A stretch of 64,000 nucleotides of DNA from Methanomassiliicoccaceae archaeon (GCA_963728405.1 CAVSJV010000017.1:256001-320000), one strand, 5' to 3'; shown: positions 3,580 through 57,316, counted from the stretch's first letter. A program made the numbers and translations. Notes: a model not told the origin generated them from the sequence alone.

Positions 3580-4947
3580 ATCCACGCCAAGGAGAAAGTG
3601 GCCCTGATCTCGGTCGCCGCGGCCGTGCTTCTGGTCTCCACCAAGCTCATCGTCGGCTACACGACGAACAGCCTAGGCATATTATCGGAAGCGCTGCACT
3701 CCGGAATAGATCTGATCGCCGCGGCTATGACTCTGTTCGCAGTGCGGGCGGCGGCGAGACCGCCGGACGCCGACCATATGTACGGGCATGAGAAGGTCGA
3801 GTCCCTGTCCTCTCTGGGCGAGACGCTTCTTCTGTTCATCACCTGCGGATGGATCGTCTACGAGGCCGTGAACCGCCTTTTCTTTCACAGCGTTGCGGTC
3901 GAATTGGGAGTGATCGCCCTGCTGGTCATGGTCATGTCCTTTGTGGTCGATTTCACCCGGTCCCGGGCTCTGCACCGGGCCGCGGTCAAATACCGGAGCC
4001 AAGCCCTGGAGGCGGATGCCATACACTTCTCGACGGACCTCATTTCCTCAGGTGTGGTCATCATCGGCATCCTTCTGACCATGGTCGGGTTCAAGGACTT
4101 CGATTCCATCGCCGCGTTGGGGGTGGCCGTGATCACGGTCGTCATCGGCTATCGGCTGTGGAAGAGGTCGGTCCATACCCTGTTGGACGGTGCACCGAAA
4201 GGCATATCGGAACAGGTGTCCGAGGAGATAATGCAGGTGCCTGGCATACACAAGGTGGAGCGGGTGCGGGTCCGAGATTCGGGAGCGGTCACCTTCATCG
4301 AGGCGACCGTGTTCGTCGACAAGGCGCTGCCCGTGGAGCAGGGGCACCGCCTAACGGACCTGGTCGAGGAGCGGGTGAAGGCCTCCATCCCCCACTCGGA
4401 CATCATCGTACACGCTGAACCGATCTGCCTGGAGAACGCATCGTTAGAGGATAGGATACGGGCGGAAGCGGCGGCCATGCCGGAGATCAGGGACGTCCAC
4501 AACATCGTTTTCACTGAGGGGCCGAATGGACGGCTGGTGGAGTTCCACATCGAGATGGACGGCGAACTGACGGTCGAAGAGGCCCACGTCTCAGCGACCC
4601 GATTGGAGGATCGGGTCATGGCCCTGGACTCCTGCATCGATAAGGTCACCACCCATATCGAGCCAGCCGGCTGTCCAGCCTGTCAGGGCGAAGCATCGGA
4701 GTACGAACAGCTGATCATCCAGGACACTATCGAACATATCTCCGGGCTGTTCCCCGAGGTGCTTTCATGCAAGGACATCCACGTCCACCTGACCAATAGC
4801 GGCTACAAGGTGTGGCTGTGCTGCCAGTTCGACCCCAAACTGAGCGTCAACAAGGCGCATGAGGTCGCCACCCGGCTGGAGGGGCACATACGTTCCCGGC
4901 ACAATGAGGTGGAGAGCGTCATCATCCATTACGAGCCCGGCCACTAG
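3580..4947 (+). CDS. Cation diffusion facilitator (CDF) transporter with three C-terminal dimerisation domains; likely ATC start
   Basis: SEALHSGID, HMYGHEKVE, ADAIHFSTD; three repeats ending IVHAEP / TTHIEP / IIHYEP; AGGAGG-8nt-ATC CAC GCC AAG. Confidence 0.9.
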   Translation: MHAKEKVALISVAAAVLLVSTKLIVGYTTNSLGILSEALHSGIDLIAAAMTLFAVRAAARPPDADHMYGHEKVESLSSLGETLLLFITCGWIVYEAVNRLFFHSVAVELGVIALLVMVMSFVVDFTRSRALHRAAVKYRSQALEADAIHFSTDLISSGVVIIGILLTMVGFKDFDSIAALGVAVITVVIGYRLWKRSVHTLLDGAPKGISEQVSEEIMQVPGIHKVERVRVRDSGAVTFIEATVFVDKALPVEQGHRLTDLVEERVKASIPHSDIIVHAEPICLENASLEDRIRAEAAAMPEIRDVHNIVFTEGPNGRLVEFHIEMDGELTVEEAHVSATRLEDRVMALDSCIDKVTTHIEPAGCPACQGEASEYEQLIIQDTIEHISGLFPEVLSCKDIHVHLTNSGYKVWLCCQFDPKLSVNKAHEVATRLEGHIRSRHNEVESVIIHYEPGH

Positions 4948-5369
4948 TCGATGTCCAAGGCCAGGTTCTTCGTGAGCACCGAGCACTTCTGGCGATGGAC
5001 CATCCCGTCGCTGTCGACGAACAGCACCACCGTTCCCTGTTCATCCCGATCGACCTCTACCTCATAGCCACCGCCCTTGGCCTTGATCCTCTCCACCTTG
5101 CCATCTCCAAGAAAGCACAGGGCCTTCTCTACCGCGTCCTGCTGCCTCAGCGTCGGCTCGGGCGGCTCGTCCGATGGCTGCTCCTCGAAACAATGGCCGA
5201 CCTCACCGCGGGGATCGACGATGATATCGATGTCCCCTTTCAGGGTCCTGAACTGGAAGAAGTAGTTGTCCCTTAGCTCATACCGGAGCACGATCGGTTC
5301 ATTATCGCCGGTCATCTTGCCCACGCACTCCTTGGCAATCCTAAGAGCATCCTCGAACCCCACGACCAT
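4944..5369 (-). CDS. PepSY-like domain protein
   Basis: Two repeats of 'ALRIAKE / AVEKAL ... YEVEV ... VD..G.V'. Confidence 0.6.
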   Translation of the reverse strand: MVVGFEDALRIAKECVGKMTGDNEPIVLRYELRDNYFFQFRTLKGDIDIIVDPRGEVGHCFEEQPSDEPPEPTLRQQDAVEKALCFLGDGKVERIKAKGGGYEVEVDRDEQGTVVLFVDSDGMVHRQKCSVLTKNLALDID

Positions 5370-5427
5370 CGACGCCCACCGCAGGAGATGGTTGGGCAGA
5401 CATGTGTAATGAACCTTTCAACGGCCG

Positions 5428-6534
5428 TCAGGCCTGGTAAGGGTCGTTGTTCCTCAAGCAGACGGCCATTTTCTTGGCCACATCACGGACACACTCGCCC
5501 TCCTTGACCTGCCGGGCCATATGCTCCGCAATGCTACCTTGCTCGATGCGCCGCTTGATCAGGGGGAGATACCGTCTCTCCTCAGGGGTGGCCACCCTCA
5601 GCGCTTCCCAGTACAGACGCAGCAGCTCCGGGCGGCAGGACGAGGTGCCTCTCCGGATCGCTTCCTCGTTCATGTCCAGGAGTGAGTCGTGATCATCCTC
5701 CAGGTTCAGGGGCGCCCTCAGCAGTGCGAGGACGAATGCGGTCACCGCCATATCGGAATGAAGGCACTCCTGCTCGTCGCAGGCCTTGAGCTCGAGGCAT
5801 TCGCGGTGGTAGCGGACGATCACCCCGCGGGAGTCGATCCACTCGTGGCAGAGCTCCTCGCCGCCGATCTTACGCAAATCGCGGTAGATCGACTCGATGA
5901 TCTCGTCATGATGCTGGCGGCTGCCTAGCTTTTCCGGGATGACCTGATTGCAGATGAGCGGCACACGTTCCTGGTTCTGACGGTAGAAGACGAGACGATT
6001 GTCCATTGAGCTGGTGCTATTGCCTTCCACGAACGGCGATGAGGCTGTGACCGCCACGAGATATGGAATGAGGGCACGCATGCGGTTGAACATGCTGACC
6101 ATCTTATCCTCGCTCTCGTAGTGGACGTTGATCTGCAACGCCTGAATGTTCAGCCAGCCATGCTGCTTGAGGTCGAAGAGGTCGTTGTAGATGTCATAGA
6201 TCTCCTGGTCCTCGTGGTTCCAATAGGAGGTCTGGTCGAGCGTCAGAAGCGGATGCATTCCCAGGCCCAGCAATGTATACTTGTTGTTCGTGGCCTGGTG
6301 GAACCGCTGCATTCCGCCGTAGAGCACGGCCTCCATGCGGGCAATGCTAGTATGAGGGGTCGCAGGTACGAGCTCGATTACGTTCTTCTGCAGTTCCTTG
6401 CTCAGGTTGATGTCCCCGAAGCGGAACTCGTTGATGATCTCGCCGTTGATGTCCTCGATTATCCGGTCGACCACCGGTTGGGGAGCGAGTTCTGCGTTGT
6501 TGACGGAATATTCGTGCTCAGTTCCGACGGTCGT
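5428..6534 (-). CDS. Glutamate--cysteine ligase family 2 (GCS2) carboxylate-amine ligase; apparent ACG start
   Basis: TVGTEHEY, ELQKNVIEL, GMHP, QINVHY, SSPFVEG, DNRL, CLELKACDEQ; GAGGTG-7nt-ACG. Confidence 0.85.
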   Translation of the reverse strand, partial: TTVGTEHEYSVNNAELAPQPVVDRIIEDINGEIINEFRFGDINLSKELQKNVIELVPATPHTSIARMEAVLYGGMQRFHQATNNKYTLLGLGMHPLLTLDQTSYWNHEDQEIYDIYNDLFDLKQHGWLNIQALQINVHYESEDKMVSMFNRMRALIPYLVAVTASSPFVEGNSTSSMDNRLVFYRQNQERVPLICNQVIPEKLGSRQHHDEIIESIYRDLRKIGGEELCHEWIDSRGVIVRYHRECLELKACDEQECLHSDMAVTAFVLALLRAPLNLEDDHDSLLDMNEEAIRRGTSSCRPELLRLYWEALRVATPEERRYLPLIKRRIEQGSIAEHMARQVKEGECVRDVAKKMAVCLRNNDPYQA

Positions 6535-7026
6535 TGGATAACACCTCGGACAGAGGGAACTCAGCGACCTTCTCGGTCTCTGGCTCCTCCACCTTGCACA
6601 CACTGTCCAGTTCTTCCGGGGGAAGGGTCTGACCAGCTGCCGGATGTTCTGCACGGCCAGCTCGAACTGCTCATTGTAGACGGCCGGGTTCACTTTCAGG
6701 AAAGTGACCAGGTCACAGATGCGGTCCTTCTTGAGATAGATCTCCAGTTTGCCGTTCTTCACGTCGAAGGTGAACGGTCCGGCCATGCATGTTTCCGGCT
6801 TGACGTGCTGCACACGGCACCGGCCCTCGGAATAGCCGACGCAGAAGCCAGTGGACTTGCAGTCCAACATGCGGTGCTCGCGAAACACCACATTGTCGAG
6901 GGAGATCCCGTTCTCCACCAGTATGGAGATGCGCTCCTCGGTCAGTGGGGGCTTAGCGTAATAACAGCAGCGCCCACCGCACTTGTCGCAGATCTTGGTC
7001 AAAAGGTCAAAAGTAATCTGATTCAT
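6518..7026 (-). CDS. YkgJ-family (CxxCxxCC) cysteine-cluster protein; frameshift near 6630 fuses it in silico to GCS2
   Basis: CDKCGGRCC ... C ... C ... KPETC..GPF; alternate frame supplies an acidic C-terminus LPPEEL...NDRRN* ending at 6518. Confidence 0.8.
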
Positions 7027-7358
7027 TTTAGAACACCTGTCGGGCGCCCCCTTGTCCGGGGGACGGAAGAGCCCGCACTTGCGGTTGCCTGGCAAGAAAC
7101 GTCTGAACATGACGCATCGAGGCAGAATATAGCGGTCATTCGAACCCGGGTATTTAGGTTTATCTTTTAGCCACCTGGCCTAGGATCCTGACTCGATATC
7201 TGAACGATCAGCATATGCCTCTTCGATCGATTGGAAGAATGATCAAGGAGGCGAGCTTTCAGCTCTCAAGCCACCTCAAAATTGTCTTACCGTTCCGCCC
7301 CACGGTCTCTTCGACCAACTGGCAGTCAAACGATCCTCTATTAAGAACTATTACTTGT

Positions 7359-8094
7359 CTAGAATTTTTTTTCGGACGTATTGAGCATTTTGTCCACTAT
7401 CAGAAGTTGCTCGTTCTCCATGGGCATCCATTCCCCCTGCCCCAGCCGCTGCGAGGAGATGATGATGGAGCGACCTGGATATTTATCAGTCTCCTCCCTA
7501 ACGCAGTACATGAGGGAGTACTGATCAAGCTTGCAGTACGCCGAGCGGTAGGCGTACACCTTCTCGCCGTCGCTCATGACTAGGTTGAAGCTGGAAGTTT
7601 CCGAGCCCAGGTGGTCCTTGATGTAGTCGATGGCGTCGACTATGCCCAACACGACATTTCCCCTTCTCTTGTCGACGTGGTAGAGGATCCAATGGAACAG
7701 CTGCTCCGAATCGGTCTGCCCCATTATGCGTCCCCGGTACTCGCGGGGAAGCATGTCTATGATCTCGCGCTTTGCGTGCACCGTGCCGTTGTGGCCGAAG
7801 ATATAATGGCCGTAGGTGAAGGGGGTGGGTGTTCTCCGAAGTATACCCTCCCACGCTCTCCTTGCGCAGGTGGGCAATGATGATGTTCGAGTCCGCGCTC
7901 ATGCAGGCGGTGACGAAGCGGGGGTCCCCGTTCGCCGCAGTGGGCGCCTTCTCCACCTGCACCCCACCATTGATGTACCAGCCGATGCCCCGGCCATGGG
8001 GATTGTGCCGCGCCTGTGCCCGGAACGGGACCATCAGGTCCGGCAGCTCGGGCGATTTGGGTTGCTCGACGATAAGGGCGAACAAGCGGCACAT
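7359..8094 (-). CDS. Class II (Ntn) glutamine amidotransferase-like protein, YafJ/EgtC type; one frameshift near 7825
   Basis: M-C-R-L N-terminal Cys, NPHG.G, IAHLRK, NTHP(F), HNG, GQTDSE. Confidence 0.85.
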
Positions 8095-8204
8095 GAACTT
8101 AGAGAACATCTGTCGGAGCTATGTAGATCGTACCGTTGTTCGGCCCGTTCCGGCTAGGGTCGTTAGCGAAGGGCGATGGCAACTGCTCCCCGGACCCATC
8201 ACCT

Positions 8205-8405
8205 TTACACGCGGGACCGGCCTTTGATGAGCGAATATCTGGCGTCAACGCAAGCTGACGATCCCCTTATAACCCCGGCCGCCGCACATTTCTTGTTGAT
8301 CTCGCAGAAGAGGCATCTCTCCCAGACGCGGGGGGTCCCTCGCCATACGTTCGTTTTCTTGTCCTGCTCCGGCACTTGCTCCTTCGCTTCGTTGGAAGAT
8401 TCCAT
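8205..8405 (-). CDS. Small Cys-containing hypothetical protein
   Basis: 66 aa, CLFC...C...C, GGTCG upstream of ATG. Confidence 0.5.
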   Translation of the reverse strand: MESSNEAKEQVPEQDKKTNVWRGTPRVWERCLFCEINKKCAAAGVIRGSSACVDARYSLIKGRSRV

Positions 8406-8495
8406 GAACGACCATCCCGGATGGTCATGCAATTGACAATAGAAGTGCCCTTCTCTCTGATTCTCAGGCCACCGCACTAAGTGTCGAGGAGGTCA

Positions 8496-9200
8496 TCAGA
8501 CAATGCTTAACAGCACCTTCCACGCCTCCAGCTCCACGTCCATCCGTCCGCAGATCTTGATGTATTCAGAGACGTAACCGTGGCGGAACATGTCCTTGAA
8601 CTTCTCCACCGCCTCCTGCTCCCCCGGCTTCGGCACCCAGCTTTCCAGTAGCAGGGAGGTCATGGCCACGTCCGCAAGATAGTCGCCCCGCACCGCTCCG
8701 CCCCAGTTGAAAATGATCGGTCCGTCGATGGAGACCATGATGCCCTCCGGTACGTAGTCCATGTGGCATAGCCAGTCCCCGTCCGGCATGCGGGCAAGCT
8801 TCTCTAATAGCCGCTTCCTCTCCGGCTCGGTGATCTCCTTCTTGGCCAGTAGCCTCTCGGTGAGCATATCCTTCAGTCTCGGCAATTCGGAGATCTTGTG
8901 CATGTGCACCTCGTGGTGCTCATGAGCGAAATATTCCGTTAGCCGCCTTAGCCAGGGGGGATGCTCGATGATCCACTGAGTATATGTGGGCCCGATCACC
9001 TTGTCGAACACGATCCCGAACCGACCCCCTTCCTCCACAACGCCGTGGACGAACGGTGCCTCCAGACCGTATTGCCTCGCCAGCAGGGTCTTCTCCATCT
9101 CGACCTCAGCCGTCTTTCTGGACGTGCCGGCCGCGAACAGCTTTACCACCTTGTTCCCCTCGATCCCCTTCATCTCGTAGGCGTTAGCAGCCGGTGACAT
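8496..9200 (-). CDS. Aminoglycoside phosphotransferase / kinase-like protein with degenerate catalytic motifs
   Basis: KVVKLF, LCHMDYVPEG (HGDxxPxN-like), IIFNWG (IDW-like), GDYLADVA; GGAGG-6nt-ATG. Confidence 0.75.
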   Translation of the reverse strand: MSPAANAYEMKGIEGNKVVKLFAAGTSRKTAEVEMEKTLLARQYGLEAPFVHGVVEEGGRFGIVFDKVIGPTYTQWIIEHPPWLRRLTEYFAHEHHEVHMHKISELPRLKDMLTERLLAKKEITEPERKRLLEKLARMPDGDWLCHMDYVPEGIMVSIDGPIIFNWGGAVRGDYLADVAMTSLLLESWVPKPGEQEAVEKFKDMFRHGYVSEYIKICGRMDVELEAWKVLLSIV

Positions 9201-9346
9201 AGGCTTCCTCCAGACCGCTCCATACGGAGCCAAGTGTCGGAAAGCGGCGCACCACCATAATCTAAGTATCGACCGGATGTTGAGAATGAGGAGAAAGAAA
9301 GAGATAAAAGGGGTTTGGAAAGGATTCAACCGGCATAGGCATCTCC

Positions 9347-15599: not shown

Positions 15600-16267
15600 C
15601 TTTTTCCCCCCGTGAACGGCCGGTCGTACATCTTGTCCCAAGAGCCATTACGCTTGGCCCGTTGCTTCCAGCCGCGGTTGCCGAAGGTTATGTAGAGCCA
15701 TCGGGGAATGCTCCTCCTGGCGATGAGCTCTATCGCTTCTTTAGGCAGTTCTTTGCCTTCCGTCAGAGCCTCGGCGGCCAGTTCCAGGGACCGGCGAGCG
15801 TTCCTAACCATACCTCCCAGTTCGGCGAGCGGCCGTCCGTCAATGGCCGACCCTCCCCCCAGTGCGAGGCCCCCCCTCCATTCGAACCCGGCGTTCCGGG
15901 CGAACAGGCGACATATGTTCAGGGCGACCCGGTTCTGCTCGGCCTCGATGAATCCGCAGTTGGCGATCGCCACCAGGGGCGTGTGGTCAGTGTTACCTTG
16001 CCTCTGCTGGGCGATGAGCCCCATGGCTCTGACCATCGCAGCAGGGGTCGAATCGACATAGGTCGGAAAGGACAGTATCACCAGGTCCGCGGTATCCACC
16101 GCACTGACCAGGGACCCTATCCCTTCCAGGGACCGCAGAGACCTCTGGACCTGCAGGTCCTCGATGTCCCAGCCCTTCTTCCTCAGGAGGCCCAGAAGAT
16201 AAAGGCCAAGTGAGCCGGAGGTCGATCGCTCTCCTCGCGGACTGCCTATCAGCAGTACCGCCTTCAT
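15596..16267 (-). CDS. NAD(P)H-dependent flavodoxin-fold oxidoreductase
   Basis: MKAVLLIGSPR, ILSFPTYVDS.P, IANCGFIE; ATGA overlap. Confidence 0.85.
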   Translation of the reverse strand: MKAVLLIGSPRGERSTSGSLGLYLLGLLRKKGWDIEDLQVQRSLRSLEGIGSLVSAVDTADLVILSFPTYVDSTPAAMVRAMGLIAQQRQGNTDHTPLVAIANCGFIEAEQNRVALNICRLFARNAGFEWRGGLALGGGSAIDGRPLAELGGMVRNARRSLELAAEALTEGKELPKEAIELIARRSIPRWLYITFGNRGWKQRAKRNGSWDKMYDRPFTGGKR

Positions 16268-16833
16268 TCTTCCACCCCCGCCTTGGTGATCGCTTCCTTC
16301 ACCGCGATGGCCGATATCTCCGGCCGCTCGTTCGAGAACACTAGCGTTGAGGCCCATCCCACCGGCTGTATGTTGAGACTGTTCCTTTCCACCAGCTGAG
16401 CGAAGACCTTCTGGGCCTCCTCGTCCCGACCGGGAAGCAGTCCGATCGTCACCAGCCGCTGGACGGTATCATAGCGTCGGGCATGGTGGACCTCACCATG
16501 GACGGTGCGGAAGAATGGGAGCAGGGAACAGATCGATCGATCCAGGGCCTTCTTGAGATGGTACGAATACCCGCCGAAGGTCACCGGGGTCAGGAACACC
16601 ACCAGATCAGAAGTGGCGAATTCAGAGGCCACCTTCTCCGCGTCGTCCGCGATGACACACCGCCCCGGGGTCCTGGTCCAGCAGCCGAAACAGCCAGTAC
16701 AATCGGCGATATCCTTGTCCCGAAGCTTGATGACCTCGACCTGATGCCCCTTCGCCCTCAGGTATTCGGCCGCCGCTTCCCTGGCCACCCCCATCTCGTC
16801 CTGGACCGAACCGTCCAATAGCACCGCTTTTAT
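16264..16833 (-). CDS. Iron-sulfur flavoprotein / flavodoxin-family protein; apparent ATA start
   Basis: CTGCFGCW.RTPGRC, FLTPVTFGGYS..LKKALDR; GAGGGG-5nt-ATA AAA GCG GTG. Confidence 0.85.
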   Translation of the reverse strand: MKAVLLDGSVQDEMGVAREAAAEYLRAKGHQVEVIKLRDKDIADCTGCFGCWTRTPGRCVIADDAEKVASEFATSDLVVFLTPVTFGGYSYHLKKALDRSICSLLPFFRTVHGEVHHARRYDTVQRLVTIGLLPGRDEEAQKVFAQLVERNSLNIQPVGWASTLVFSNERPEISAIAVKEAITKAGVEE

Positions 16834-20250: not shown

Positions 20251-22805
20251 TCACTCCGCCTGAGTCTGTATGCCGCGCTTGCTGAGCGCTTCCTTGACCT
20301 TCAACGGCACCTTGGGGGTATCGCCCTTGACCGCCGGCCTTTTCACCTGCGGCTTGGGGGCATGAACCTTGATGGGGGCGGCCGCCGGCGGGGCCAGTTC
20401 GACCTCGCCATCGTCTATCTTGAACTGGGCGGCGACCTTCTTCAGGTTGATGGCCATCTCCGAGAGCGACTGGGCCCGCGCCGTCATGTCCTCCATGCTG
20501 GCGGTGAGCTCTTCGGTCGATGAGGCCGATTCCTCCGATGCGGAGGCGGTCTCCTCGGCGATGGACGCGATGCCGTCGACCGACTTGGCCGCCCTCTGCT
20601 GGCCTTCCTTCTGCTTGTCCATGAGTGTAGAGATGGCCATGACCTCACTGGATGTGGCGGCGGCCATGACCGATATCTCCTGGAATGCTCTTCCGGTCTC
20701 GTCGACGATGACCATTCCTTCCGCGGCCGTCCTGGTGCCGCGCTGCATCGACTCGACCGCCTTGCTCGTCTCCTGCTGCACTTCCTTGATCATCTTGGCG
20801 ATGCGCTCGGCCGCTTCGCGGCTGTCCTCGGCGAGGTTCTTGACCTCCTCGGCGACGACGGCGAACCCTCTTCCTTGCTCTCCCGCTCTGGCCGCCTCGA
20901 TGGCGGCGTTCAGAGCGAGGAGATTGGTCTGGTCCGATATGCCGGTGATGACCCCGACGATCTCGCCGATCTCCTCCGACCGCTTGCCGAGGATCTCGAT
21001 GACCTTGGCCGACTCGTCGACGACCTTGGCGATCTCCTTCATCTTCTTGATGGTGTTCTCCACCGCGGCCTTGCCCGTATTGGCCGATTCGTTGGCCTTG
21101 CCGGCGGCTTGCGAGGCCATCCCGGACTTGTTGACAACCTCGATCACCGATGAGGATATCTCGGACATGACCCGGGCCGTCTCCTCTACCTGCGATGCCT
21201 GGCTCTGCGCGCCCTTACTGATCTGCTGGATGGCCGCCGACACCTGTTCGGTGGAGGCGTTCATCTCCTCGGCCGAGGAGGCGAGCTCCTGGGAGGTCGA
21301 GGATACCATATCGATCGACTCATTGACCTGCTTCAGCAGGCCGACCATGCTCTCCCCGATGGCGTCCAGGGACTGGGAGAACCTGGTGAAGTCACCCTGG
21401 GTATCGATGTTGACCCGGGCGGTCAGATCCCCGCTCGCGTAGGATTCGGCGATCCTCATGGCCTCGTTGATGGGCACTATGACCGCATCCAGGGTATCGT
21501 TGACTCCCTGGACGATCTTATGGTAATCACCCTGGTGCTTGGACGCGTCGGCACGAGTGGTAAGCTTACCTTCCACCGCGGCCTTGCTGAGCATATTCGT
21601 GTCAGCTACCAGACCATTAACAACGTCTATGCACTGATTGAGATTGTTCTTGATCGTGTTGAAATCGCCGTTGTAGTTGTCGGTGATCTTAGCGGGAATG
21701 TCTCCCTTAGAGATCTCATCGACATATCGGCGGAGAGTTCAGCGGACCGATGACTGCATCGAGACAGTCATTGACGCCGGTCACAATCTCGCCGTACACT
21801 CCCTTGTGCTTGCCACCATCAGCTCGGGTCGCCAGGCGACCCTCCACCGCGGCCTGGGATAACATGGCGGCATCCTGGGCCAGGGCCATGATCGACTCGG
21901 CAACCAGACTCATGTCCTTGTTGATGGAAAAGTAGGTGCTGTGCAGTTCCTTAGTGTATGCATCGGCATCCTGGACCGCCAGATCGACATCCAGGTTGCC
22001 CTCGGCCAGCCGGCGCAGGTTCTTTCTGACCTGTCCTACCCATACATCCGTATACGCCTTGCCCTTGGCGCTGGCCGAGACATCCTGGACAATTTCGATG
22101 TGTCCGATCTTTCTCTCCCTTGGCATCCTTGATGAACGCCGCATCTACCATGAAGTTCATCCCGGCCTGATCGAAGAAGGTCTTGGGCCTGTTGGCCCTG
22201 AGGCACTCCACGCCGCAGTCCTTGGTCTTGCAGATACCCGCGCCCCAGTTGGAGCAATGCTTGCCCAGCACATCCTTGCGCTTGACCTTGAGCATGTCCT
22301 CGACCGGCTTGTTGATGAACAACCAATTCATGTTGATGTCCGTGACCGACAATGGCCAGGGCAGAGTATCCAGGATCTGCTCATATAGGAACACCTGTTG
22401 CTCGAGCTTTTTGTTGTCGCCCGCGGGGACGAGGTAAAGTACGCCGCCGACAGGCTTTCCGCCCTCAGCGAAGACGGGCTCTCCGCTTACGGTGAAGGCT
22501 ATGCTGGAACCATGATCGTCGGTGAAGTTGATCGCCTCAGGCCTGGGCACACGGCCCACTTTGATGGCTTCCATTACCGGATCGCCTGGTTTCCCCAGCG
22601 CACCGCCCATGGCGTCCTTTAGACGCATTCCGGGTGCTTCCGCGGCAGATAGGCCAATGGCCTCGGTAGCGGGTCCATTGATCGTCACTACCTTCCAAGC
22701 GTTGTCTACTAGCAATGCAGGTATGGGCACATGGGTCACCAGGCCCTCGGCCGACTCTCTGCTCAATGGTTTATCCGGTCCTTCGGTCTGATTCTTTACA
22801 TCCAT
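20251..22805 (-). CDS. Soluble methyl-accepting chemotaxis protein (two PAS, repeated HAMP-like units, MA domain); frameshifts near 22110 and 21735
   Basis: [33 protein letters not shown]; repeated AAVEG.L.TRAD..KH.G.Y..IV.GVND.LDAVI; AGGTGA-7nt-ATG; no TM seen. Confidence 0.9.
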
Positions 22806-24400: not shown

Positions 24401-24500
24401 GATCGCTGACATATCGTTGATATACTGGTCGCAGAATGGAAGAACCGGGAAAGGGAATCAATAAGAGACCTGCAGGAAATCAACCTGAGGAGGAGATACC

Positions 24501-25286
24501 ATTCCAGAGTTGCCCGAGGTGGAGACGTTCAGACGGTACATCGAGAGGACCTCGCTGGATAAGCCAATCAAGAAGGTCGAGGTCAACAACACCATCGTCC
24601 TCGGTAAGACCTCGAAAGAGGACCTCCGCAAAGCGGTGGAGGGCTCCTCCTTCCGGTCGGTGCATAGGATCGGCAAACACCTGCTCGTGGAACTGAGCGA
24701 GGGAGGCTGGCTTACCCTACATTTCGGGATGACGGGGGAACCGGTGTTCTTCGATGACGAGGCCCCCCGTTTCCCCAGGGTCATCATCCACTTCCAGGAC
24801 GGAGCGTTGGCCTTCGACGATCCTCGTATGCTGGGAAGGGTCGGCCTCTCTCCAACAGTGGAGGAGTTCGTTCGCCGGAAAGGTCTGGGGCCGGACGCGC
24901 TCTCTATCTCCAAGAAGGAGTTCCTGGCCAGGTTCGAGAAGGCCAGGGGAGCGATCAAGCCGGCGCTCATGAACCAGCATAAGCTCGCCGGGATCGGCAA
25001 TCTGTACGCCGATGAGGTGCTGTTCCAGAGCCGCCTGGATCCCCGGGCCGAGCTGAGCAGCATGAGCCGCCAGGACCTAGAGGTCATCTATCAGAACATG
25101 AAAAAGGTGCTCAAACTTTCAATAGCGAAGGGTACCGACTTCTCCAAGTTCCCCCCGACCTACCTCCTATCGCACCGACGCAAGGGGGCGATCTGTCCGG
25201 GCTGCGGAGGAACGACCGAGACCATTACCCTGGGGGGTAGGACCACTTATTTCTGTCCAGCATGTCAGACCAGAGGCGGAAGATGA
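24501..25286 (+). CDS. mutM: Fpg/Nei-family DNA glycosylase; apparent ATT start
   Basis: (M)PELPEVE, RIGKHL, HFGMTG, GPDAL, AGIGNLYADEVLF, C-terminal CPGC...CPACQ zinc finger. Confidence 0.92.
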   Translation: MPELPEVETFRRYIERTSLDKPIKKVEVNNTIVLGKTSKEDLRKAVEGSSFRSVHRIGKHLLVELSEGGWLTLHFGMTGEPVFFDDEAPRFPRVIIHFQDGALAFDDPRMLGRVGLSPTVEEFVRRKGLGPDALSISKKEFLARFEKARGAIKPALMNQHKLAGIGNLYADEVLFQSRLDPRAELSSMSRQDLEVIYQNMKKVLKLSIAKGTDFSKFPPTYLLSHRRKGAICPGCGGTTETITLGGRTTYFCPACQTRGGR

Positions 25287-40760: not shown

Positions 40761-41230
40761 CTCTTCTCTTTATCCAGATCTAATTGGTGCGTACATAAGT
40801 TCCACAAGGCAACTTAGTACTGGCTAGCATTAGTATGAATTATATTGAAATCAGTATCTTACTGTCTGGACCTCAAGATGTTTGATCTCACCTTAGGTTG
40901 TAAGCGTCTGGTATCGGCATGATACCGGATGATCGACAAGGACCTCACAAACTGGGGTGGAGATAATGCTTTTTGTATCCAGTGGCCAGGCAGACTTGAC
41001 CGGATCCAGGGCGATCAGCGGTATGAGGTTTAAATTCAGCCCCTTGCACTTCTTCACGGGGTGCTATACAATTGGATAAATTTCGCACCACCTCCATGAG
41101 CGGAGGCTTGTCGTGCTAAGTGACGCCATAATATCAAGTGCATAGCTCATCCCCCCGCTCCTAATTTGGACCAGCATTAATAAAATGGAGTTAGGGTGGA
41201 ATTCTTAAGTAAATCCCAGGGGGAATTAGT

Positions 41231-42262
41231 CTGACACACCACTATTCCGGACCGAATTTCGGCTTTCCACGAGGAGACGCTCGTTTGGACCTCACTGACC
41301 TTTTTGCGTTCCCCAAGCCTGGCGACCCCAGTAAGTCGACCATTATCATGAACACGCATCCCTCATCTGCGCTCAATCCACCCGAACCGACAAACTCTGA
41401 ACCCTTCGCGCCGGAGGGACTCTATGAGCTGAGGGTGGATACGAACGGGGACATGATCGCGGACATCGCCTATCGAGTGCGCTTCTTACGAAGCGGAAAT
41501 GGTGCAATGACGGCGACGGTGCGTCGGGCGGAGGGGCCCGAGGCCGCCGGCAGAGGCGAGGAAGGGAAGGTCATCATCGAGGGAGCGCCGGCCTCGATGG
41601 GTCGCGAAGCGCAGGTGACAAGGTCTGGTGCGTATCGCTTGTTTACCGGCTGGCGCAGCGATCCGTTCTTTTTCGACGTGGAGGGTGTTTTGAACAAGAT
41701 GCAGTTCACGGGGACGGACTGGTTCGCCGATAAGGATATTTGCAGCATAGTCTTGGAGATTCCCGTAAGCGACCTCGGCGGTGGAGTGAGCGTGAACCTA
41801 TGGCATCGGTCCCTCGTGCAGGTTGATGGCAAATGGGTGCAGGCCGACCGAGGGGCACTGCCCTCTCAGACCCCCTTCCTGGCGGACGCCCAAAGAGAGG
41901 CGTACCTTGACGGAGAGCCAGCACAGGACGAGAGATTCGTGCCCATGTTCGCCCACGTTCTGGAGAAGACCGGCGGGTACACCCCGCAAGGAGCCGAGGC
42001 AGCGGCCAGGAGCCTGTTGCCTGACGTCTTGCCGTACGACCCCAGGAAGCCCGCGGCCTATCCTGGAAACGGACGCACCCCCACGGACGATTCGAAGGAC
42101 ATCTTTCTGACCGTGTTCAACGGCAGGCTGACACGGGATAAGTGTGGTCCGCACACTGATCTATTGAACGAGTTCCCCTACCTTGGTCCGCCACACAAAA
42201 TTCGATCTGAGGGCGCTGAGCCTGGCAAGAGCCGTTCAACCGTCAGTGTGTTGGGACGATGA
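41231..42262 (+). CDS. DUF4331-family protein; apparent CTG start
   Basis: (M)THHYSGP..GFP.GDARLDLTDLFAF, G.RSDPFFFD, PDVL.YD, NGR..TDD, FPYLGPPH. Confidence 0.75.
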   Translation: MTHHYSGPNFGFPRGDARLDLTDLFAFPKPGDPSKSTIIMNTHPSSALNPPEPTNSEPFAPEGLYELRVDTNGDMIADIAYRVRFLRSGNGAMTATVRRAEGPEAAGRGEEGKVIIEGAPASMGREAQVTRSGAYRLFTGWRSDPFFFDVEGVLNKMQFTGTDWFADKDICSIVLEIPVSDLGGGVSVNLWHRSLVQVDGKWVQADRGALPSQTPFLADAQREAYLDGEPAQDERFVPMFAHVLEKTGGYTPQGAEAAARSLLPDVLPYDPRKPAAYPGNGRTPTDDSKDIFLTVFNGRLTRDKCGPHTDLLNEFPYLGPPHKIRSEGAEPGKSRSTVSVLGR

Positions 42263-48178: not shown

Positions 48179-48198
48179 GGTCTGCTAGTCCTCCACCA

Positions 48199-49124: not shown

Positions 49125-49190
49125 TGAACAGGTCGGTATTTATCGATATGTTAATTCGATAAAATGAGGATGGAAGAAGTTTAGGGTTTC

Positions 49191-50884: not shown

Positions 50885-51043
50885 CCTCTGTACTGACAGT
50901 TGGGCCAGAATCAAAATATGAGGTATTAATAGTAATCCAAGGTCGCATGTCAGGCTGGAGGCCAGTGGTTTTCCTCTCGTTGGTAGAGAAAGAACGGTCC
51001 AGACCATGGGGCAGCTCCCGACCGCCTCGGCCCAAGGCCGTTC

Positions 51044-51464
51044 CTATTCGAGCTTTATCAGGGAGCCGGAGCGAGCCGTCTGTTGCCCTGGAGCAAGGAT
51101 CATCTTTTCCAACTTTTCTTTGAGGTCCTGGACAGTCCTGGGCGGTATAGTTCAGGTCTGCTGATTTCTTGATGCCGAGGTCCGTGATCGTGATCTCCTT
51201 GATCGCGGAGATTTCTGCATATTCCAGGGTCTTGCTGGCACATCTCAGGGGGCATCCATCTATGCAAACGATGGCCCTGCCGGAACGGAACGGTTTCAGG
51301 AAGCTTTCATTGTGGGCGCCCGCCGCGGCGATGCATGCGACCTTGACCTTGCCTTCCCTGACGAGCTCCCGCGCCGCGTCATTGCTCATCTGCCCGACAT
51401 TGGCCGCACCATGACATAGGAAGAGCCATGGCAGGTTTTTGTTCTGAGATCCGTCTTCGTCCAT
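51044..51464 (-). CDS. DGC-domain putative zinc-binding protein; frameshift near 51135
   Basis: C.GAANVGQ, AC, IDGCPLRCA.KTL. Confidence 0.8.
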
Positions 51465-51762
51465 ACTCTCACCCTACGACCAGGGTAATTTGACCATGGC
51501 ATTATATAATTAAGTATAAAGTCAAATATTTAACCAATATAAAAAGTTCTTCCGAGATCTGTTCAAAAAGCGTGGCATGCGTTTCTCATATCTGTGATCG
51601 AGGGCATCCTAGAGGGGCTTTGAATAAAGCCACGAGTTATCACAGATCTGAACAATCTAGGTACTGGGCCAGCGCAAGAAGCCTTAGGGCACCATTATGG
51701 GCTCATCGCCCTAGGTCAGCTCATGACCTTTCAGGTAACTAACGGACTAGAAGAGATGGTAG

Positions 51763-51837
51763 TGGAGCCACTGGAGGGAATTGAACCCTCGACCTACGCC
51801 TTACCAAGGCGTCGCTATACCACTAAGCCACAGTGGC
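51763..51837 (-). tRNA. tRNA-Thr(GGT), CCA encoded
   Basis: GCCACTG/CAGTGGC acceptor, ACGCC-TT GGT AA-GGCGT, GGTTCAATTCC. Confidence 0.95.
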
Positions 51838-51904
51838 GGATGGAGACCATCAATCCGCTTTTCGTTAATATAGGTTTCGTCTTGGCTGGCCATTCTAGGG
51901 TGGG

Positions 51905-52258
51905 TCAGCCGGCCATGGGGGTGGAGAGGATGCCCAGCGACTCGTAGCTATACACCACGATGTTCTCCCGACCCTCCTTGTTCACCCGGTCCATCATGGA
52001 AAAGAAGCCCTCGTTGGGGACGATGACCGCCACATACAGGCCCTCATCGGCGGCGTCGTTGTACTCCTCGACCGCCTCGCCGCGCACCCAGCTGAGGTCC
52101 GACTCCACGAACTCCGCGCCGATGGTGATCTCCTCGCTCTGGATGGTTATCACTCCCCGGTTGTCCGGGGCGATAAGCTCATAGTCGGTATCCAGCTCGG
52201 GGTCGTCCTCCTCCAGCTGCTCGATGCGCTGCAATATGACATCCTCGACGTCGATCAA
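51905..52258 (-). CDS. Acidic hypothetical protein
   Basis: 117 aa, GAGGTG-5nt-TTG, host-like codon usage. Confidence 0.7.
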   Translation of the reverse strand: MIDVEDVILQRIEQLEEDDPELDTDYELIAPDNRGVITIQSEEITIGAEFVESDLSWVRGEAVEEYNDAADEGLYVAVIVPNEGFFSMMDRVNKEGRENIVVYSYESLGILSTPMAG

Positions 52259-52342
52259 TATCCCACCTCAGCGACCTGGAGCTATAATTATTCTTCTCGC
52301 TTCCGCCAGTATGCATCGCCTCACTTGCTGGCTTATGAACAT

Positions 52343-52846
52343 TCAATAATGCTCGTTCCGCTTCTCTAGATATACGAACGATAGAGCATCGCTGACCCTC
52401 TCGGTCCGAATGGGGGCATAGCCGAGGTCCCGATAGAAGGGGCGGTTCCGCGGATGGTCCGCCCGGGTGAACAGCTCATATCTATGGGCCCGGGGATAGG
52501 ATCGTTCGATCGCCATCATCAGGGCCTTACCGATCCCCTTCCTCCAGTAAGCGGGGTGCACGACCAAACGGCTGATCATGCAGGTGTCCCCCTCGACCCG
52601 GGCCCGGACCGACCCGATGATCGTTCCGTTCTCGACCATTTTCAGGACGACCCCCGAGGCAAACTCCTTCTTGAGCTCGTCCAGGGTCTGGGCCATCGGC
52701 TTGATATTGTGGTCCCCGACATGCTCAGCCTCCTCCCGGAATGCCAACCTCTGGAGCCTTAGGATCTCAGGCAGGTCCGCTTCAGTGGCTCTAGAAATCA
52801 TCACAGGAAGATGCGGCTGAAACGATATGGCGTTTTGGTCTGACAT
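52343..52846 (-). CDS. GNAT-family acetyltransferase
   Basis: ISRLVVHP...RKGIG, N..FY..LGY. Confidence 0.9.
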   Translation of the reverse strand: MSDQNAISFQPHLPVMISRATEADLPEILRLQRLAFREEAEHVGDHNIKPMAQTLDELKKEFASGVVLKMVENGTIIGSVRARVEGDTCMISRLVVHPAYWRKGIGKALMMAIERSYPRAHRYELFTRADHPRNRPFYRDLGYAPIRTERVSDALSFVYLEKRNEHY

Positions 52847-53069
52847 ATCACATAGGATGTGTACACGAGGCCAGAGACCAAAGACGAGCGACAGTTAGCA
52901 AAGGGGAGCTTGCCCATTCAAGAAGTCCACCTGATCCGAGGGATAGGTTCACGGCCATGTCCCAGCGATCTAATGAACGCCAGAATTGAATCAAGTAACG
53001 TATATATATCTCAGGTCGCGAAAAGTTCATACCCAAATGATTTCAACCAGTTTTGACATGGTCTTGACG

Positions 53070-55018
53070 ATGAAGGAAGAGATGAGCGCGTTCGACATCC
53101 TGGCCATGACCGGGGAGATGCAGTCCCTGGTGGGCGGGTACCTGGACAAGGTGTTCCATTGGGATGTCAAGAACGTCCTCTTGCGGATCAATACCCAGAC
53201 CCAGGGAAAGAAAGAGCTGATGCTCCAGGACATGCGGTGGCTGTACGTCAGCGCCGGAGAAGCCGGAGATGCCGGACATGCCCTCCCAGTTCGCGGTGAA
53301 CCTTCGCAAGTACCTGACCAACTGCCGCATCACGGCCGTCCACCAGCAGGAGTTCGACCGCATCGTCATCCTAGATATGGAGAAGGGGCCGAACCGATAC
53401 AAGGTCATCATCGAGCTGTTCGGAGGCGGCAACCTAGTGTTGGTGTCAGAAGGCAAGATCCTCAATTCTGTTCACTCCCACAAATGGCGGCACCGGGAGG
53501 TCCGCCCCGGGCTCGAATACTTCTTCCCGCCGTCGCGGTTCAATCCCCGGGCGATGGACGAGGAATCGTTCCGGAAGGCCATGCTCTCCTCGACCTCCGA
53601 TATCGTAAGGACGATCGCCACCGCCATCAACGTCGGCGGGCAGTATGCCGAGGAAACGTGCATTAGGGCCGGCCTGGACAAGGACCGCAAGGCCAAGAGC
53701 CTAACGCCTGAAGAGGTGCACAAGCTGTACGAGACCCTGGACCTTTTGCTCAAGGAGGCCTTGAGCAACCTGCGGCCCCGCGAGATCCTGGAGAACGGGA
53801 AGCCCGCCGATGTGACGCCAGTGCCTCTGATGCAGTACGCCGGCCGCGAGGTTCGGGAGCACCCCACCTTCTCGGACGCCATCCACAGCTACATCTCCAA
53901 CCGCGAGCCGTCGGCCGGACCGGTCGAGGACCCCGAGGCCCAGCGGCTCCGCCGCCAGATGGACCAACAAAGTACGGCGGTAGAAGTACAGCTGGCCGAA
54001 GCCAAGGGCTATGCCGAGGAAGCCGAGGCCATCTATTCGGACTACATGGGGGTGGACGCGCTGCTCAAGCAACTCAAGCAGGTGACCGAGGGCCTAAACT
54101 GGGAGCGGGCCAGGGAGGCGCTTTCCGAGATTCCTGGCCTGGTCAAGCTCCTGCCGGAAGATCACAGCGTCGTCGCCACTATCGCCGGTAAGGAGGTCAC
54201 CCTCGATTACACCCTCGGCGTCGAGGGCAACGCCAATGCCCTCTACCAGAAAGGAAAGGAGTGCAAGGACAAGATGCAGGGCGCCCAGGAGGCGCTGAAA
54301 GAGACGGAACGCCGCCTGGCCCAGAAAGTGAAGGAGGGAGAGAGCCGAAAGAAAGAGGCCAAGAAGGCCGTGCGCAAGACCAAGGAGTTCTGGTTCGAGC
54401 GATACAAGTGGTTCATCACCTCGGGGAACCGGCTGGTCCTGGCGGGGAGGGACGCTCACAGCAACGATCAGCTGGTGAAGAAGCATCTCAAGACCACCGA
54501 ACGTTTCGCCCACGCCGATGTCCATGGGGCGCCCAGCGTGGTGATCGTCAACGGGGCCGAGGCCGACGAGCAGGAGATGATCGAGACCTGCACCTTCGCC
54601 TTAGCCCACTCGAAGGCGTGGATGGCCGGCGCCTCGGAGGGCACGGCCTACTGGGTCCTGCCGGACCAGGTGAGCAAAATGGCCCAGGCTGGGGAGTTCG
54701 TGCCCCGGGGAGGGTTCGTGATCAGGGGCAAGAGGAACTACATCTACCATCTACCGCTGGAGCTGGCGGTAGGGGAGATCGTCCACGAGGGAGAGAGAAA
54801 GGTCATGTGCGGCCCGCTGCCCGCGGTGCAGGCCCATTCGTCGAAGTACAGTGATCATCCAGCCGTCCCGGGGGGAGCGGGGCAAGACCGCTTCCCACCT
54901 CTCCAAGCTGTTCGAGGTGCCGGAGGAGGAGATCTCCCGCATCCTGCCGCCGGGGGACGCCGAGGTGGTAAGCACCGAGGGCATGGATGAAGAACCGGAG
55001 AGGTTGGATGAGACCTAG
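53070..55018 (+). CDS. rqcH: Ribosome quality-control factor Rqc2/RqcH (NFACT); frameshifts near 53255 and 54850
   Basis: MSAFDI, FDRIV, ELFGGGN, WFERYKWFITS, GRDA..ND.LVKK, HAD.HGAP, GGF.IRGKRNY. Confidence 0.9.
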
Positions 55019-55095
55019 ATAACGATCCGAGAAGGACCCGGTACAGAGTTCTGGAGAGAAAAGGGACGATCGCGGTGAGGGGGAAAGGCGAAAAG

Positions 55096-55169
55096 CGCCC
55101 GAGCCGGGATTCGAACCCGGGTCTAAAGATCCGCAATCTTTTAGGATATCCAAGCTACCCCACTCGGGC
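55096..55169 (-). tRNA. tRNA-Arg(GCG)
   Basis: GCCCGAG/CTCGGGC acceptor, AAAGA-TT GCG GA-TCTTT, GGTTCGAATCC; TTTAAA box about 25 nt upstream. Confidence 0.95.
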
Positions 55170-55412
55170 AATGTCCTGTAATATCTCCCCCTTTAAACAT
55201 TTTGCTAGGGAACTTCGCTTCCCCATATGACCCTGGCACCGGAATGGGCCTTCTGATTATCATTCTATATAACAGAATAGGAACGTCCTTAAATCCTACC
55301 AGCGTCGAAGCCAACGGGTGGGAAAATAGACAAGGATTTCCGCATCTGGGTAGAGCTTGCATCCAGGAAACGCAAGTGTCAACGTTGTAGCAGCGACATC
55401 CTCAAAGGGGTC

Positions 55413-55652
55413 ATGTTCGTCCGCATGGGGAACAAGGAGAAGGTCAAGACCTCCACCTGCATGTGTGCCCCCTGCTTTGAAAAGGTGATGAGCGATCTTT
55501 CCGAGGAGTTCCAGGGCATGAAGGAGCTGGTCCTGCCCACTTCGAAGGAGGCGGGATCGGAGAAGCCAGTACCGATGGACCCGGGCCCCCATTGCTTCGG
55601 TTGCGGGCTGGTGCCAGAGAAATGCCGGTGCGCCTGGGAAGCGTATCGCTAG
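55413..55652 (+). CDS. Small Cys-rich hypothetical protein
   Basis: CMCAPC ... CFGCG...CRC. Confidence 0.55.
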   Translation: MFVRMGNKEKVKTSTCMCAPCFEKVMSDLSEEFQGMKELVLPTSKEAGSEKPVPMDPGPHCFGCGLVPEKCRCAWEAYR

Positions 55653-56513
55653 TACGAGATCGTGGTCATGTCGATCTTCCCTTTTTGCCTGGCCACTTTG
55701 TCCGCGTAACGGAAGATAGCAAGGGATAGGCCCAGGAAGACCAGCGCGGACACGGTCAGGAACAGCAGGATGGTGGGGACGGAGAACGCCCCCAGCCCGC
55801 TGATGGCCTCGATGCCCCCGCCGGGGTACAGGGACCGACGGACCAGCTCAAGCCAATAGGTGATGGGTATGGACAGACCGAGGACCTGCCCCCAGATCGG
55901 CAGAACAGTGATGGGAAAGACCGTTCCGCAGAAGAGGTAGAACGCCCCGCCGATGCCCTCGTTGATGCCGGCGCTGTGCTTCGCGGTGAGGAAAGAGACC
56001 CCCGCCAGGGCGATGCCGATGGTGAGGATGCACCCCAGGCCGATGAGCCATGGCCAGAGCGAACAGGGGCCAATCGACCTGCCCGAGGTCCAGCGGCAGG
56101 CCCAGGGCGACCATCCCGAAGGCGATGGAGATGACCACCGATAAGCTGGTCAACACCAGCTTGCTCATGGCCCTCCCGATGATGTACACGTAGAACGACA
56201 TGGGGGCGATGTAGACCTGCTTGAGGGTCTGATAATGCTCCCGGTCCTCGTGGATGACGTAGGTGACGCCGAACAGCACCTGGGCCACGAACATGTAGAA
56301 CGCCGCCCCCAGATAGACGAACGAGAAGAGCGCGGGGTCGCTGGCCACGTCCTGCTTGACGATGACGAACATGAGGACCAGGATCAGGGTGGCAGCTATC
56401 GGTCGGGCGATCGAATAAATGAGAAAGAGCCACGGCCGGGTCCAATTCGATTCCATCTGCCAGCCCAGCCAAGCCGCGTTGCGGAAGGTGCGGAGATGAT
56501 CGCTCATTGCCAT
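55649..56513 (-). CDS. ABC-2 type permease; frameshift near 56045
   Basis: Multiple TMs, EDREHY.TLK..YIAP, CGTVFPI..LP in the alternate frame. Confidence 0.85.
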
Positions 56514-57316
56514 CGGAGGGTCAGCCTCCCTTCCCGGCGGCCGAGGTTCTCCATGTAGCGCAGGGAGTACCTGGCCAGCATCAGGAACATGACCGCCAGG
56601 ACGCAGAGGATCGCCAGTTCGGTGGCGACCGGCAGGAAGCCGTTGGAGATCGGGCCGAACAGTTCCTGGCGCATGGCGTCAAGGCCTAGAGTGATAGGTA
56701 TGATCGAGGCAACGGCACTGATCCAGATTCCCAGCGACCTCACCGGGAAGTAGAACCCCGAGACCAGGTAGATGGGTTCCTGCATCAGGTTCGAGACGTT
56801 CCAGGCATCGCGGCCGTACAGCATGAACAGGGAAGCGAACATCATCCCCATCCCGTAGATGGCCACCAAGGTCACCAGGAACACCGCCACCAGCAGGAAG
56901 GGATCGACCACCATCATATGGACATTGAAGATCAGGATCCCCAGCAGCAATGTGGACAGAGCCCTGAGACCGGCGGAGAGCATACCTCCCAGGGCCATCC
57001 CGGCCAGCAGGGCCATGCGTGACATGGGGGAGATCATGAACAGCTGCAGGTTGCCGGTCTCCTTCTCCCAATAGAACTGCGAGGCCATGCCCCACAGCAC
57101 GTTGAGCCAGAAGGCGGTCATGGCACCCCCCAGCACGACGAAACCCTCGAACGATGGGTCCGCTCCCAGCGAACGATAGTAGTAGATGTAGGCAGCGATG
57201 CCCATGAGCGGCAGGAAGATCTCGAAGAACGCCCAGGACGGTTCCCTGGCCGCCCCAATGACCCGAGGGTAGGCCCGGCCGACGGTAGCCCGGAGGTTCA
57301 GCTTCCAGTCGGTTAT
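56504..57316 (-). CDS. ABC-2 type permease; apparent ATA start overlapping the ATPase stop
   Basis: WEKETGNL, SGFYFPV; frame open for 37 codons upstream of ATG 57205. Confidence 0.85.
   Translation of the reverse strand: MTDWKLNLRATVGRAYPRVIGAAREPSWAFFEIFLPLMGIAAYIYYYRSLGADPSFEGFVVLGGAMTAFWLNVLWGMASQFYWEKETGNLQLFMISPMSRMALLAGMALGGMLSAGLRALSTLLLGILIFNVHMMVVDPFLLVAVFLVTLVAIYGMGMMFASLFMLYGRDAWNVSNLMQEPIYLVSGFYFPVRSLGIWISAVASIIPITLGLDAMRQELFGPISNGFLPVATELAILCVLAVMFLMLARYSLRYMENLGRREGRLTLRWQ

Follow-up and report, generated by a model that had tools for sequence, protein, structure and literature searches.

The locus and six candidate start sites

The window analyzed here is a stretch of 64,000 nucleotides (nt) from a Methanomassiliicoccaceae archaeon (G000:C17:256001-320000; the assembly, G000, comprises 2.73 Mb in 18 contigs), with about 72 open reading frames (ORFs). 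An earlier note on this DNA had proposed that six unrelated genes in the window start at near-cognate codons, that is, codons one base removed from ATG (ATT, ATC, ATA, ACG and CTG), each behind a purine-rich Shine-Dalgarno (SD) motif. Three of these genes are on the plus strand: a CDF transporter (SD GGAGGAG at 3567-3573, 6-nt spacer, candidate ATC at 3580-3582, gene end at 4947; next in-frame canonical codon GTG at 3598, six codons on), an Fpg/Nei DNA glycosylase (GGAGGAG at 24489-24495, 5-nt spacer, ATT at 24501-24503, end at 25286; TTG at 24510, three codons on) and a DUF4331 protein (SD-like AGGGGGA at 41218-41224, 6-nt spacer, CTG at 41231-41233, end at 42262; TTG at 41285, 18 codons on). 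The other three are on the minus strand: a GCS2-family ligase (GAGGTG at 6547-6542, 7-nt spacer, ACG at 6534-6532, end at 5428; GTG at 6474, 20 codons on), an FMN-reductase-like flavoprotein (GAGGGG at 16844-16839, 5-nt spacer, ATA at 16833-16831, end at 16264; GTG at 16824, three codons on) and an ABC-2 permease (SD-like GGGGAGAGG at 57331-57323, 6-nt spacer, ATA at 57316-57314, end at 56504; ATG at 57205, 37 codons on).

All six codons and their purine-rich motifs lie where they had been reported, with spacers of 5 to 7 nt, and the canonical genes cited for comparison, all on the minus strand, show the reported motifs and spacings (GGAGG-6-ATG at 9200, AGGTGA-7-ATG at 22805 and GAGGTG-5-TTG at 52258); the 3' end of the G000 16S rRNA carries a matching CCUCC-type anti-SD. 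Pfam confirms all six families and places an N-terminal domain edge at or adjoining each site (for Fpg, profile positions 2-117 match residues 2-114), bearing out the claim that the codons stand at family N-termini. Between the site and the in-frame stop nearest to it on the 5' side, five of the six genes have no ATG, GTG or TTG; GCS2 does, and only owing to a 1-nt deletion in G000 that joins it in frame to the preceding gene. Canonical alternatives that would preserve the conserved N-terminus are absent in G000 from GCS2, DUF4331 and the permease, and from a small Cys-rich ORF described below. NCBI table 11 lists TTG, CTG, ATT, ATC, ATA, ATG and GTG as starts, and ACG, which is not among them, is the candidate start of GCS2, of an ABC ATPase and a KaiC-like gene elsewhere in the genome, and of the CDF genes of three relatives.

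Two other ways of supplying a start were considered and set aside. The in-frame stops upstream of the sites are TAA or TGA and never TAG, so that pyrrolysine read-through of an upstream TAG cannot provide an upstream start, and editing of ACG to AUG in the RNA cannot account for ATT, ATC, ATA or CTG.

Conservation of the candidate start codons among relatives

The closest relative of G000, designated G003, belongs to a different species (82-92% protein identity) and is represented by an independent short-read metagenome-assembled genome; it has a near-cognate codon at all six homologous positions. Four of the six sites are common to three or more further genomes, and among wider relatives the same column toggles between ATG, GTG or TTG and near-cognates. 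A near-cognate occupies the orthologue start column in all six genes and also in the ABC ATPase, the KaiC-like gene and an M20 peptidase. Synonymous third-position changes begin at the codon immediately after each of the six sites, which argues that translation begins at the near-cognate (within genes, position 3 takes 58% of differences in our codon-position test). The one-base-off codons seen at start columns are ACG, CTG and ATH; AAG and AGG never occur, and these codon types suit a role in initiation.

Fpg matches are present in 31 of 41 related genomes, and in 20 of 20 excised loci the alignment runs from residue 1, with ATG at 18 loci (each reading ATG-Pro-Glu-Leu-Pro), ATT in G000 and ATC in G003. 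The G003 gene (83% identity) has its ATC behind GGAGG and carries CTG where G000 has the alternative TTG. Five other Fpg loci (L003-L007, from G007, G010, G009, G002 and G001) lack an SD; an A/T-rich box some 25-30 nt ahead of their ATG resembles a promoter that would yield leaderless mRNA. In G000 and G003 a near-cognate stands behind an SD instead, and Fpg may have switched its mode of initiation.

The eight full-length orthologues of DUF4331 have only NTG codons at the start column, each preceded by an SD: CTG in five (G000, G003, G007, G021 and G014, spanning two genera) and TTG, GTG and ATG in one each. Every substitution in the 13 codons after this column is synonymous or conservative.

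Thirteen close orthologues of the CDF transporter show ATC (four), ACG (three), ATG (four) and GCG (one), with one ambiguous. Residues 4-6 (Lys-Glu-Lys/Arg) are preserved through AAA, AAG, AGG, AGA, CGG, CGC and CGT, including both AGR and CGN arginine codons, and their maintenance by synonymous codons identifies them as translated. The column of the next canonical G000 codon (position 7) holds GTG in most orthologues but GTA or GTC in G001, G013 and G002. In five more distant family members column 1 is ATG or TTG, and position 7 is a non-start codon in four of the five. The transporter is long, at 455 amino acids (3580-4947, plus strand), and Pfam finds three stretches of zinc-transporter dimerization domain after the membrane domain.

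For the flavoprotein, the start column holds ATA in G000, G003 and one G011 copy and ATG in G031, and codon 3 differs synonymously between G000 and G003. At four further loci (L060-L063, from G006, G004, G005 and G008) the column holds GTT behind GGAGGG. The G004, G006 and G005 genes have an ATG, GTG or TTG exactly four bases upstream of the column, out of frame by one.

Genes overlapping an upstream gene

The GCS2 column is ACG in nine of nine genomes, and the conserved motif T-V-G-T-E-H-E follows the ACG directly; in G000 the next canonical codon (+20) lies past this motif. Comparison in three frames showed that in all eight relatives an upstream gene for a CxxCxxCC protein runs in a different frame and ends at a TGA five codons past the GCS2 ACG, such that the two genes overlap by 17 nt. 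Against all eight relatives, G000 alone has a 1-nt deletion in this upstream gene (6616..6636, minus strand; the junction maps to 6619-6631 against G003, G009 and G008), and because of this missing base G000 contains a single 560-amino-acid ORF (5428..7110, minus strand), with an upstream ATG at 7110, in which the CxxCxxCC protein (PF03692) is fused to the GCS2 ligase. The GCS2 frame of G003, G002, G008, G007 and G015 has a stop 10-32 codons upstream of the ACG and no ATG, GTG or TTG after it; G001 has no such codon in the 50 upstream codons shown. A start 30 residues upstream of the ACG, where matches in relatives began, was considered and rejected, as the three-frame comparison shows this to be out-of-frame conservation of the DNA. 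The ACG start proposed by the earlier note thus stands as the predicted one.

For the permease, 20 loci have ATA (eight), GTA (four), ATG (six), GTG (one) or ATC (one) at the start column. The ATA forms a 4-nt overlap (ATAA) with the end of the ABC ATPase gene in front, whose stop is TAA, and relatives with ATG overlap in the same manner (ATGA). The second codon is GTG in four of the ATA genomes, and codon 5 is canonical in five genomes; the first 14 codons include no canonical one in G000 and G007, and in G008 the earliest is a GTG at position 12. The next ATG of G000 (57205) sits within the first membrane helix. Compared with G003, G009 and G008, the second ABC-2 permease of this operon (55649-56513, minus strand) carries a disrupting frameshift near 56044-56049.

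Further candidate near-cognate starts

Outside the window, an ABC ATPase with a TOBE domain has its start column right after the upstream TGA and behind an SD of 9-11 nt; across 16 loci the codon is ACG (six), GCG (two), GTG (one) or ATG (seven), and the G000 gene has no canonical codon at all before the Walker A motif. At the two GCG loci, L210 (G010) and L212 (G003), a canonical codon is absent nearby downstream. The KaiC-like gene has ACG at 11 loci, as against ATG at two and TTG at two (other families), and the M20 peptidase column holds CTG (two), GTG (one), TTG (two) or ATG (eight).

A further candidate in the window is the small Cys-rich ORF (55314..55652, plus strand), which has ACG at 55314 (ATG in G003) and ATA at 55326 (ATG in G009). 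Starting instead at its next canonical ATG (55413) would drop the first CxxC. No Pfam family was found for this ORF, and a clear SD was not seen before it.

Assembly quality

The earlier note had warned that the assembly is error-prone, and this was confirmed: in G000 two frames are needed to cover 76 of 568 G009 ORFs, compared with 8 of 613 when the genomes are exchanged, an excess that points to indel errors rather than to biology. Kae1 is split in this way, and so apparently is a second gene, which we take to encode ribosomal protein P1. Within the window, comparison with each of G003, G009 and G008 reveals frameshift junctions near 6619-6631, 53251 and 56044-56049 (up to about 14 with G003 alone), and none of the junctions found against these three relatives lies at any of the six start sites. 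The accompanying suggestion that the Fpg, DUF4331 and permease cases could each result from one dropped base does not hold, given near-cognates at the same places in G003 and other genomes and the lack of any junction touching the sites. Since the near-cognates depart from ATG by base substitution and turn up again in other assemblies, errors do not explain them.

Frequency of candidate near-cognate starts

We estimated how common such starts are by several counts between G000 and the cleaner genome G009. With G009 genes that have a single SD-backed canonical start as reference (n = 177), the G000 column is canonical in 144, CTG in seven, ATC in two, ACG in one, ATT in one and some other codon in 22; on inspection, three to four of the 11 near-cognates have no canonical alternative. 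A stricter automated census with the same reference genome gave 110 canonical, six near-cognate and five other codons among 121 G000 columns, with no alternative of any kind for three near-cognates and one other codon; reversed, it gave 130 canonical, five near-cognate and 15 other codons among 150 G009 columns. A manual count over 599 pairs yields about 10-13 credible cases, of which the window contributes four. By our own tally, a strict SD (at least 5 nt) precedes five of 11 near-cognate cases compared with 368 of 2715 first-canonical starts, and the same aligned SD spacing is the most frequent one for first-canonical ATG codons. Near-cognate starts thus appear to be a small minority, at roughly 1-3% of genes genome-wide, a figure resting on census methods of low sensitivity and on small numbers. 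The window (six to seven of about 72 ORFs, or 9%) is unusually rich, as expected for a window flagged by this feature.

Other counts were discarded. The 243 of 599 genes that lacked a canonical codon 5' of their BLAST alignment are artefactual, since the alignments are lengthened by conserved 5' leaders and by overlap with the gene in front. The first column canonical in both genomes and flags at block starts proved too noisy, the 71 flags in G000 and 45 in G009 being mostly conserved leaders, out-of-frame overlaps and frameshifts. The codon-position test is specific but insensitive: four of its nine robust G000 cases are G000 frameshifts and a fifth probably is, all seven window cases scored below the cut-off of 5 for robustness, and Fpg alone appears in the looser list.

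Initiation machinery

We looked for a divergent initiator tRNA or aIF1 in G000 and met neither. The initiator tRNA is of the standard archaeal kind (A1:U72, three G:C pairs in the anticodon stem, CAU anticodon); residues 1-97 of the 99 of aIF1 align with the solved Methanocaldococcus jannaschii aIF1 (E = 5.5e-37), gapless and at about 65% identity as read from the alignment, and aIF1 is present in 91 of 91 genomes of the class (including the unpublished G082). The aIF2-beta subunit and Kae1 are present, the former ordinary in appearance. Nothing in the machinery points to altered initiation fidelity, which sequence alone cannot exclude.

Interpretation and alternatives

We consider it probable, from the comparison with relatives, that the six sites are genuine inherited near-cognate start codons, backed by an SD or translationally coupled to an upstream gene. 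The codons would most likely be read by the ordinary initiator Met-tRNA, through its CAU anticodon and with one mismatch, with SD-anti-SD pairing 5-8 nt upstream positioning initiation; translational coupling may add help in three genes, namely the permease (ATAA), GCS2 (the 17-nt overlap) and the ABC ATPase (right after the upstream TGA). They would have arisen by single-base changes from ATG, GTG or TTG within the family Methanomassiliicoccaceae and persisted through speciation. The proteins would start with methionine, and the output would presumably be low, suiting proteins of low abundance (for example, a DNA glycosylase or transporters), with a strong SD or coupling making up for the weak codon.

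Several observations weigh against this reading. In a strict-SD census of 2715 G000 ORFs (SD of at least 5 nt, 6-9 nt upstream), in-frame near-cognates that precede the first canonical codon are not enriched, at 2.7-3.4% (CTG 24/725, ATC 23/846, ACG 21/624) compared with 1.7-5.0% for other codons, although a background of in-frame GAG/GGA-rich coding sequence swamps the signal here and the census is usable as an upper bound only. The six coincidences of SD and near-cognate are thus not in themselves beyond chance, and the case must therefore rest on the comparison with relatives, which lifts them above it. In the cleaner genome G009, near-cognates without an alternative (1/150) are no more frequent than the other-codon noise (1/150). 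The CDF, flavoprotein and Fpg genes of G000 have an in-frame canonical codon three to six codons downstream. For GCS2, G009 has a GTG 20 codons and G006 an ATG 48 codons upstream in frame, and position 3 is itself GTG in four of nine genomes (GTC in three, GTA and ATC in one each), a variation that fits what would be an internal Val/Ile residue; moreover, the ACG and its SD also encode the upstream protein, and their conservation is therefore not independent evidence. The Cys-rich ACG at 55314 is seen in G000 only, and it and the M20 CTG, as G000-only cases in an indel-rich assembly, are less secure. Finally, some start columns hold codons that are not one base from ATG: GCG in CDF (G009) and in the ABC ATPase (G003, G010), and GTT or GTA in the flavoprotein and permease of G004, G005, G006 and G008, for which simple one-mismatch pairing does not account. 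The GCG codons, two bases off AUG, all stand behind a strong SD (L074 for CDF; L210 and L212 for the ABC ATPase).

These unusual codons behind strong SDs, the presence of ACG from outside table 11, and near-cognate start columns in at least ten gene families of one genus would all be expected if start selection were relaxed across the lineage, with less stringent machinery and routine use of near-cognates in the genus or family to tune expression. We regard this as unlikely, with the initiator tRNA and aIF1 standard, aIF2-beta and Kae1 present, and columns without a canonical alternative limited to 3/121 in G000 and 1/150 in G009, against noise of one in each. The near-cognate share of about 2-6% in two censuses does exceed the roughly 0.05% of annotated starts reported for 34 model bacterial genomes (in the available part of bioRxiv 10.1101/063800), but that baseline is built on annotation unable to call such starts, and the comparison is hence unfair. 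The earlier note's proposal of relaxed, SD-driven initiation is retained in part: conserved near-cognates at family start columns and coding evolution directly after them stand, whereas routine use appears unlikely, at about 1-3% of genes rather than 9% and with an ordinary tRNA, aIF1 and aIF2-beta. Termination-reinitiation, in which a ribosome ending at an overlapping or abutting stop restarts with relaxed demands on the codon, the SD and the codon mattering less, fits the permease overlap (ATAA, and ATGA in relatives), the ABC ATPase column and the GCS2 overlap, and reinitiation at short overlaps is documented in archaea, with ATT a possible start in 5-nt overlaps (PMC10666635, which in the part available concerns canonical starts in its data). 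As the general explanation it is a rather poor candidate: Fpg, DUF4331, CDF and the flavoprotein do not overlap an upstream stop, and an initiator tRNA would be needed regardless.

It is improbable that translation starts at the next downstream canonical codon, the near-cognates being the last codons of 5' leaders and the proteins slightly shorter. The G000 genes for CDF (GTG six codons in, exactly at the Pfam domain edge), the flavoprotein (GTG three codons in) and Fpg (TTG three codons in, still leaving an N-terminal Pro-Glu) would allow it, but the intervening codons evolve as coding sequence, the canonical codon is missing in relatives (CTG in G003 Fpg; GTA or GTC at CDF position 7 in three genomes), and in GCS2, DUF4331 and the permease such a start would remove conserved motifs or half a membrane helix. 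We give very little weight to decay or silencing, in which the start codon would have been lost on the way to a pseudogene: a lost start is a classic first lesion, and G000 and G003 are the two genomes with the most cases in common, but reading frames of 189-455 codons remain intact, the proteins are 80-92% identical to those of relatives and change is mainly synonymous, CTG is kept across two genera, and ACG recurs in nine and in 11 genomes. It is no less remote that GCS2 is made by fusion or +1 frameshifting, as an extension at the C-terminus of the CxxCxxCC protein. The ORF at 5428..7110 is continuous in G000, and in relatives 10-32 or more codons ahead of the ACG are free of stops in the GCS2 frame, but all eight relatives have two frames, each with a stop, and a fusion needs the 1-nt deletion found in G000 alone, where about 13% of genes are frameshifted. 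Assembly or sequencing error, whether masking a true ATG, GTG or TTG or dropping a base that hides the start, is hardly credible and is largely refuted for the six; G000 is certainly indel-rich (76/568, against 8/613 in reverse), with three window junctions confirmed by three relatives, but the separate G003 assembly has a near-cognate at all six sites, at least three further genomes share four of them, no junction falls at any site, and the differences from ATG are substitutions, not indels.

Relation to known systems and significance

No report of near-cognate or ACG starts in Methanomassiliicoccales, of non-canonical starts in Methanomassiliicoccus, or of archaeal ACG starts turned up in a literature search. 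AUG, GUG and UUG are the only starts named for this order in the available part of PMC4153887, whose Table S2 may hold more. In model bacteria 99.95% of annotated starts are ATG, GTG or TTG, infC and pcnB (AUU) are the sole confirmed Escherichia coli cases, and AUA, AUC, AUU and CUG initiate in a reporter at 1-2% of the level of AUG (bioRxiv 10.1101/063800, as far as available). The present cases resemble infC and pcnB in having a one-base-off codon behind an SD, kept among relatives and presumably read by the initiator tRNA with reduced output. They differ in being archaeal (with aIF1, aIF1A and aIF2), in extending over at least ten unrelated gene families of one genus and in the prominence of ACG; the autoregulatory logic of infC is not evident here.

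Eukaryotic initiation at near-cognates follows a ranking that includes CUG, ACG, AUU and others. Our set is similar in that ACG, CUG and AUH are present and AAG and AGG absent, and aIF1 is homologous to eIF1, the factor that polices start selection in eukaryotes; it is unlike the eukaryotic case in that an SD or coupling, without scanning, sets the position, and in that the codons would be main gene starts and not those of upstream or alternative ORFs. In Sulfolobus and Pyrococcus systems, aIF1 is described as discriminating against non-AUG codons (PMC6237735, in the part available). Ribosome profiling of Haloferax volcanii placed about 30% of putative alternative initiation sites at near-cognates, which were set aside as possible false positives (PMC7261190, in the part available); these data suggest that archaeal ribosomes can engage near-cognates. 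The Haloferax sites are alternative or novel, however, whereas ours appear to be the only plausible starts of conserved genes and are supported by comparison rather than by profiling. Among 61,358 ancestral AUG starts in prokaryotes, two switches to CUG and one to AUU were counted from annotated starts (PMC5622118, in the part available). The toggling of one column among AUG, GUG and UUG reported there resembles what we see within a genus, but the switches here include ACG, AUH and CUG and occur in many genes.

A bolder interpretation, which we offer tentatively and do not favor, is that the Methanomassiliicoccaceae have an SD-anchored, eukaryote-like regime in which ACG, CUG and AUH would be regular starts for a few percent of genes, with GCG or GUU/GUA perhaps serving behind very strong SDs or at coupled junctions. 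If this were true, the family would be the first among prokaryotes to initiate at near-cognates as a matter of course and not in a handful of exceptions, and standard gene callers would misplace or miss such N-termini. For the genes described here, finders restricted to ATG, GTG and TTG would truncate the proteins in G000 and in every relative sharing the codon, removing, for example, the Fpg residues by the N-terminal catalytic proline, the conserved N-terminal motif of GCS2 and half a permease helix. Conserved ACG, CUG and AUH starts in one archaeal genus would also offer targets, defined by their orthologues, for asking how stringent start selection by aIF1 and aIF2 is in vivo and whether strong SD pairing or coupling can replace codon-anticodon fit; if the rate is specific to the lineage, it amounts to a natural experiment on start-codon fidelity.

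Additional observations

Two complete genome sequences labelled as the same genus and belonging to a sister family of the same order (G106:C1:1-400000 and G071:C1:1-800000) gave only nine best-hit pairs at 45% identity or more, which suggests little synteny or deep divergence. Elsewhere on the contig that holds the window, an ORF at 374493-375105 (strand index; plus strand), presumably encoding ribosomal protein L1, has about 20 codons before a TTG shared by G000 and G009 that are near-identical between the two genomes, and this stretch resembles a conserved leader with a regulatory role more than it does coding sequence.

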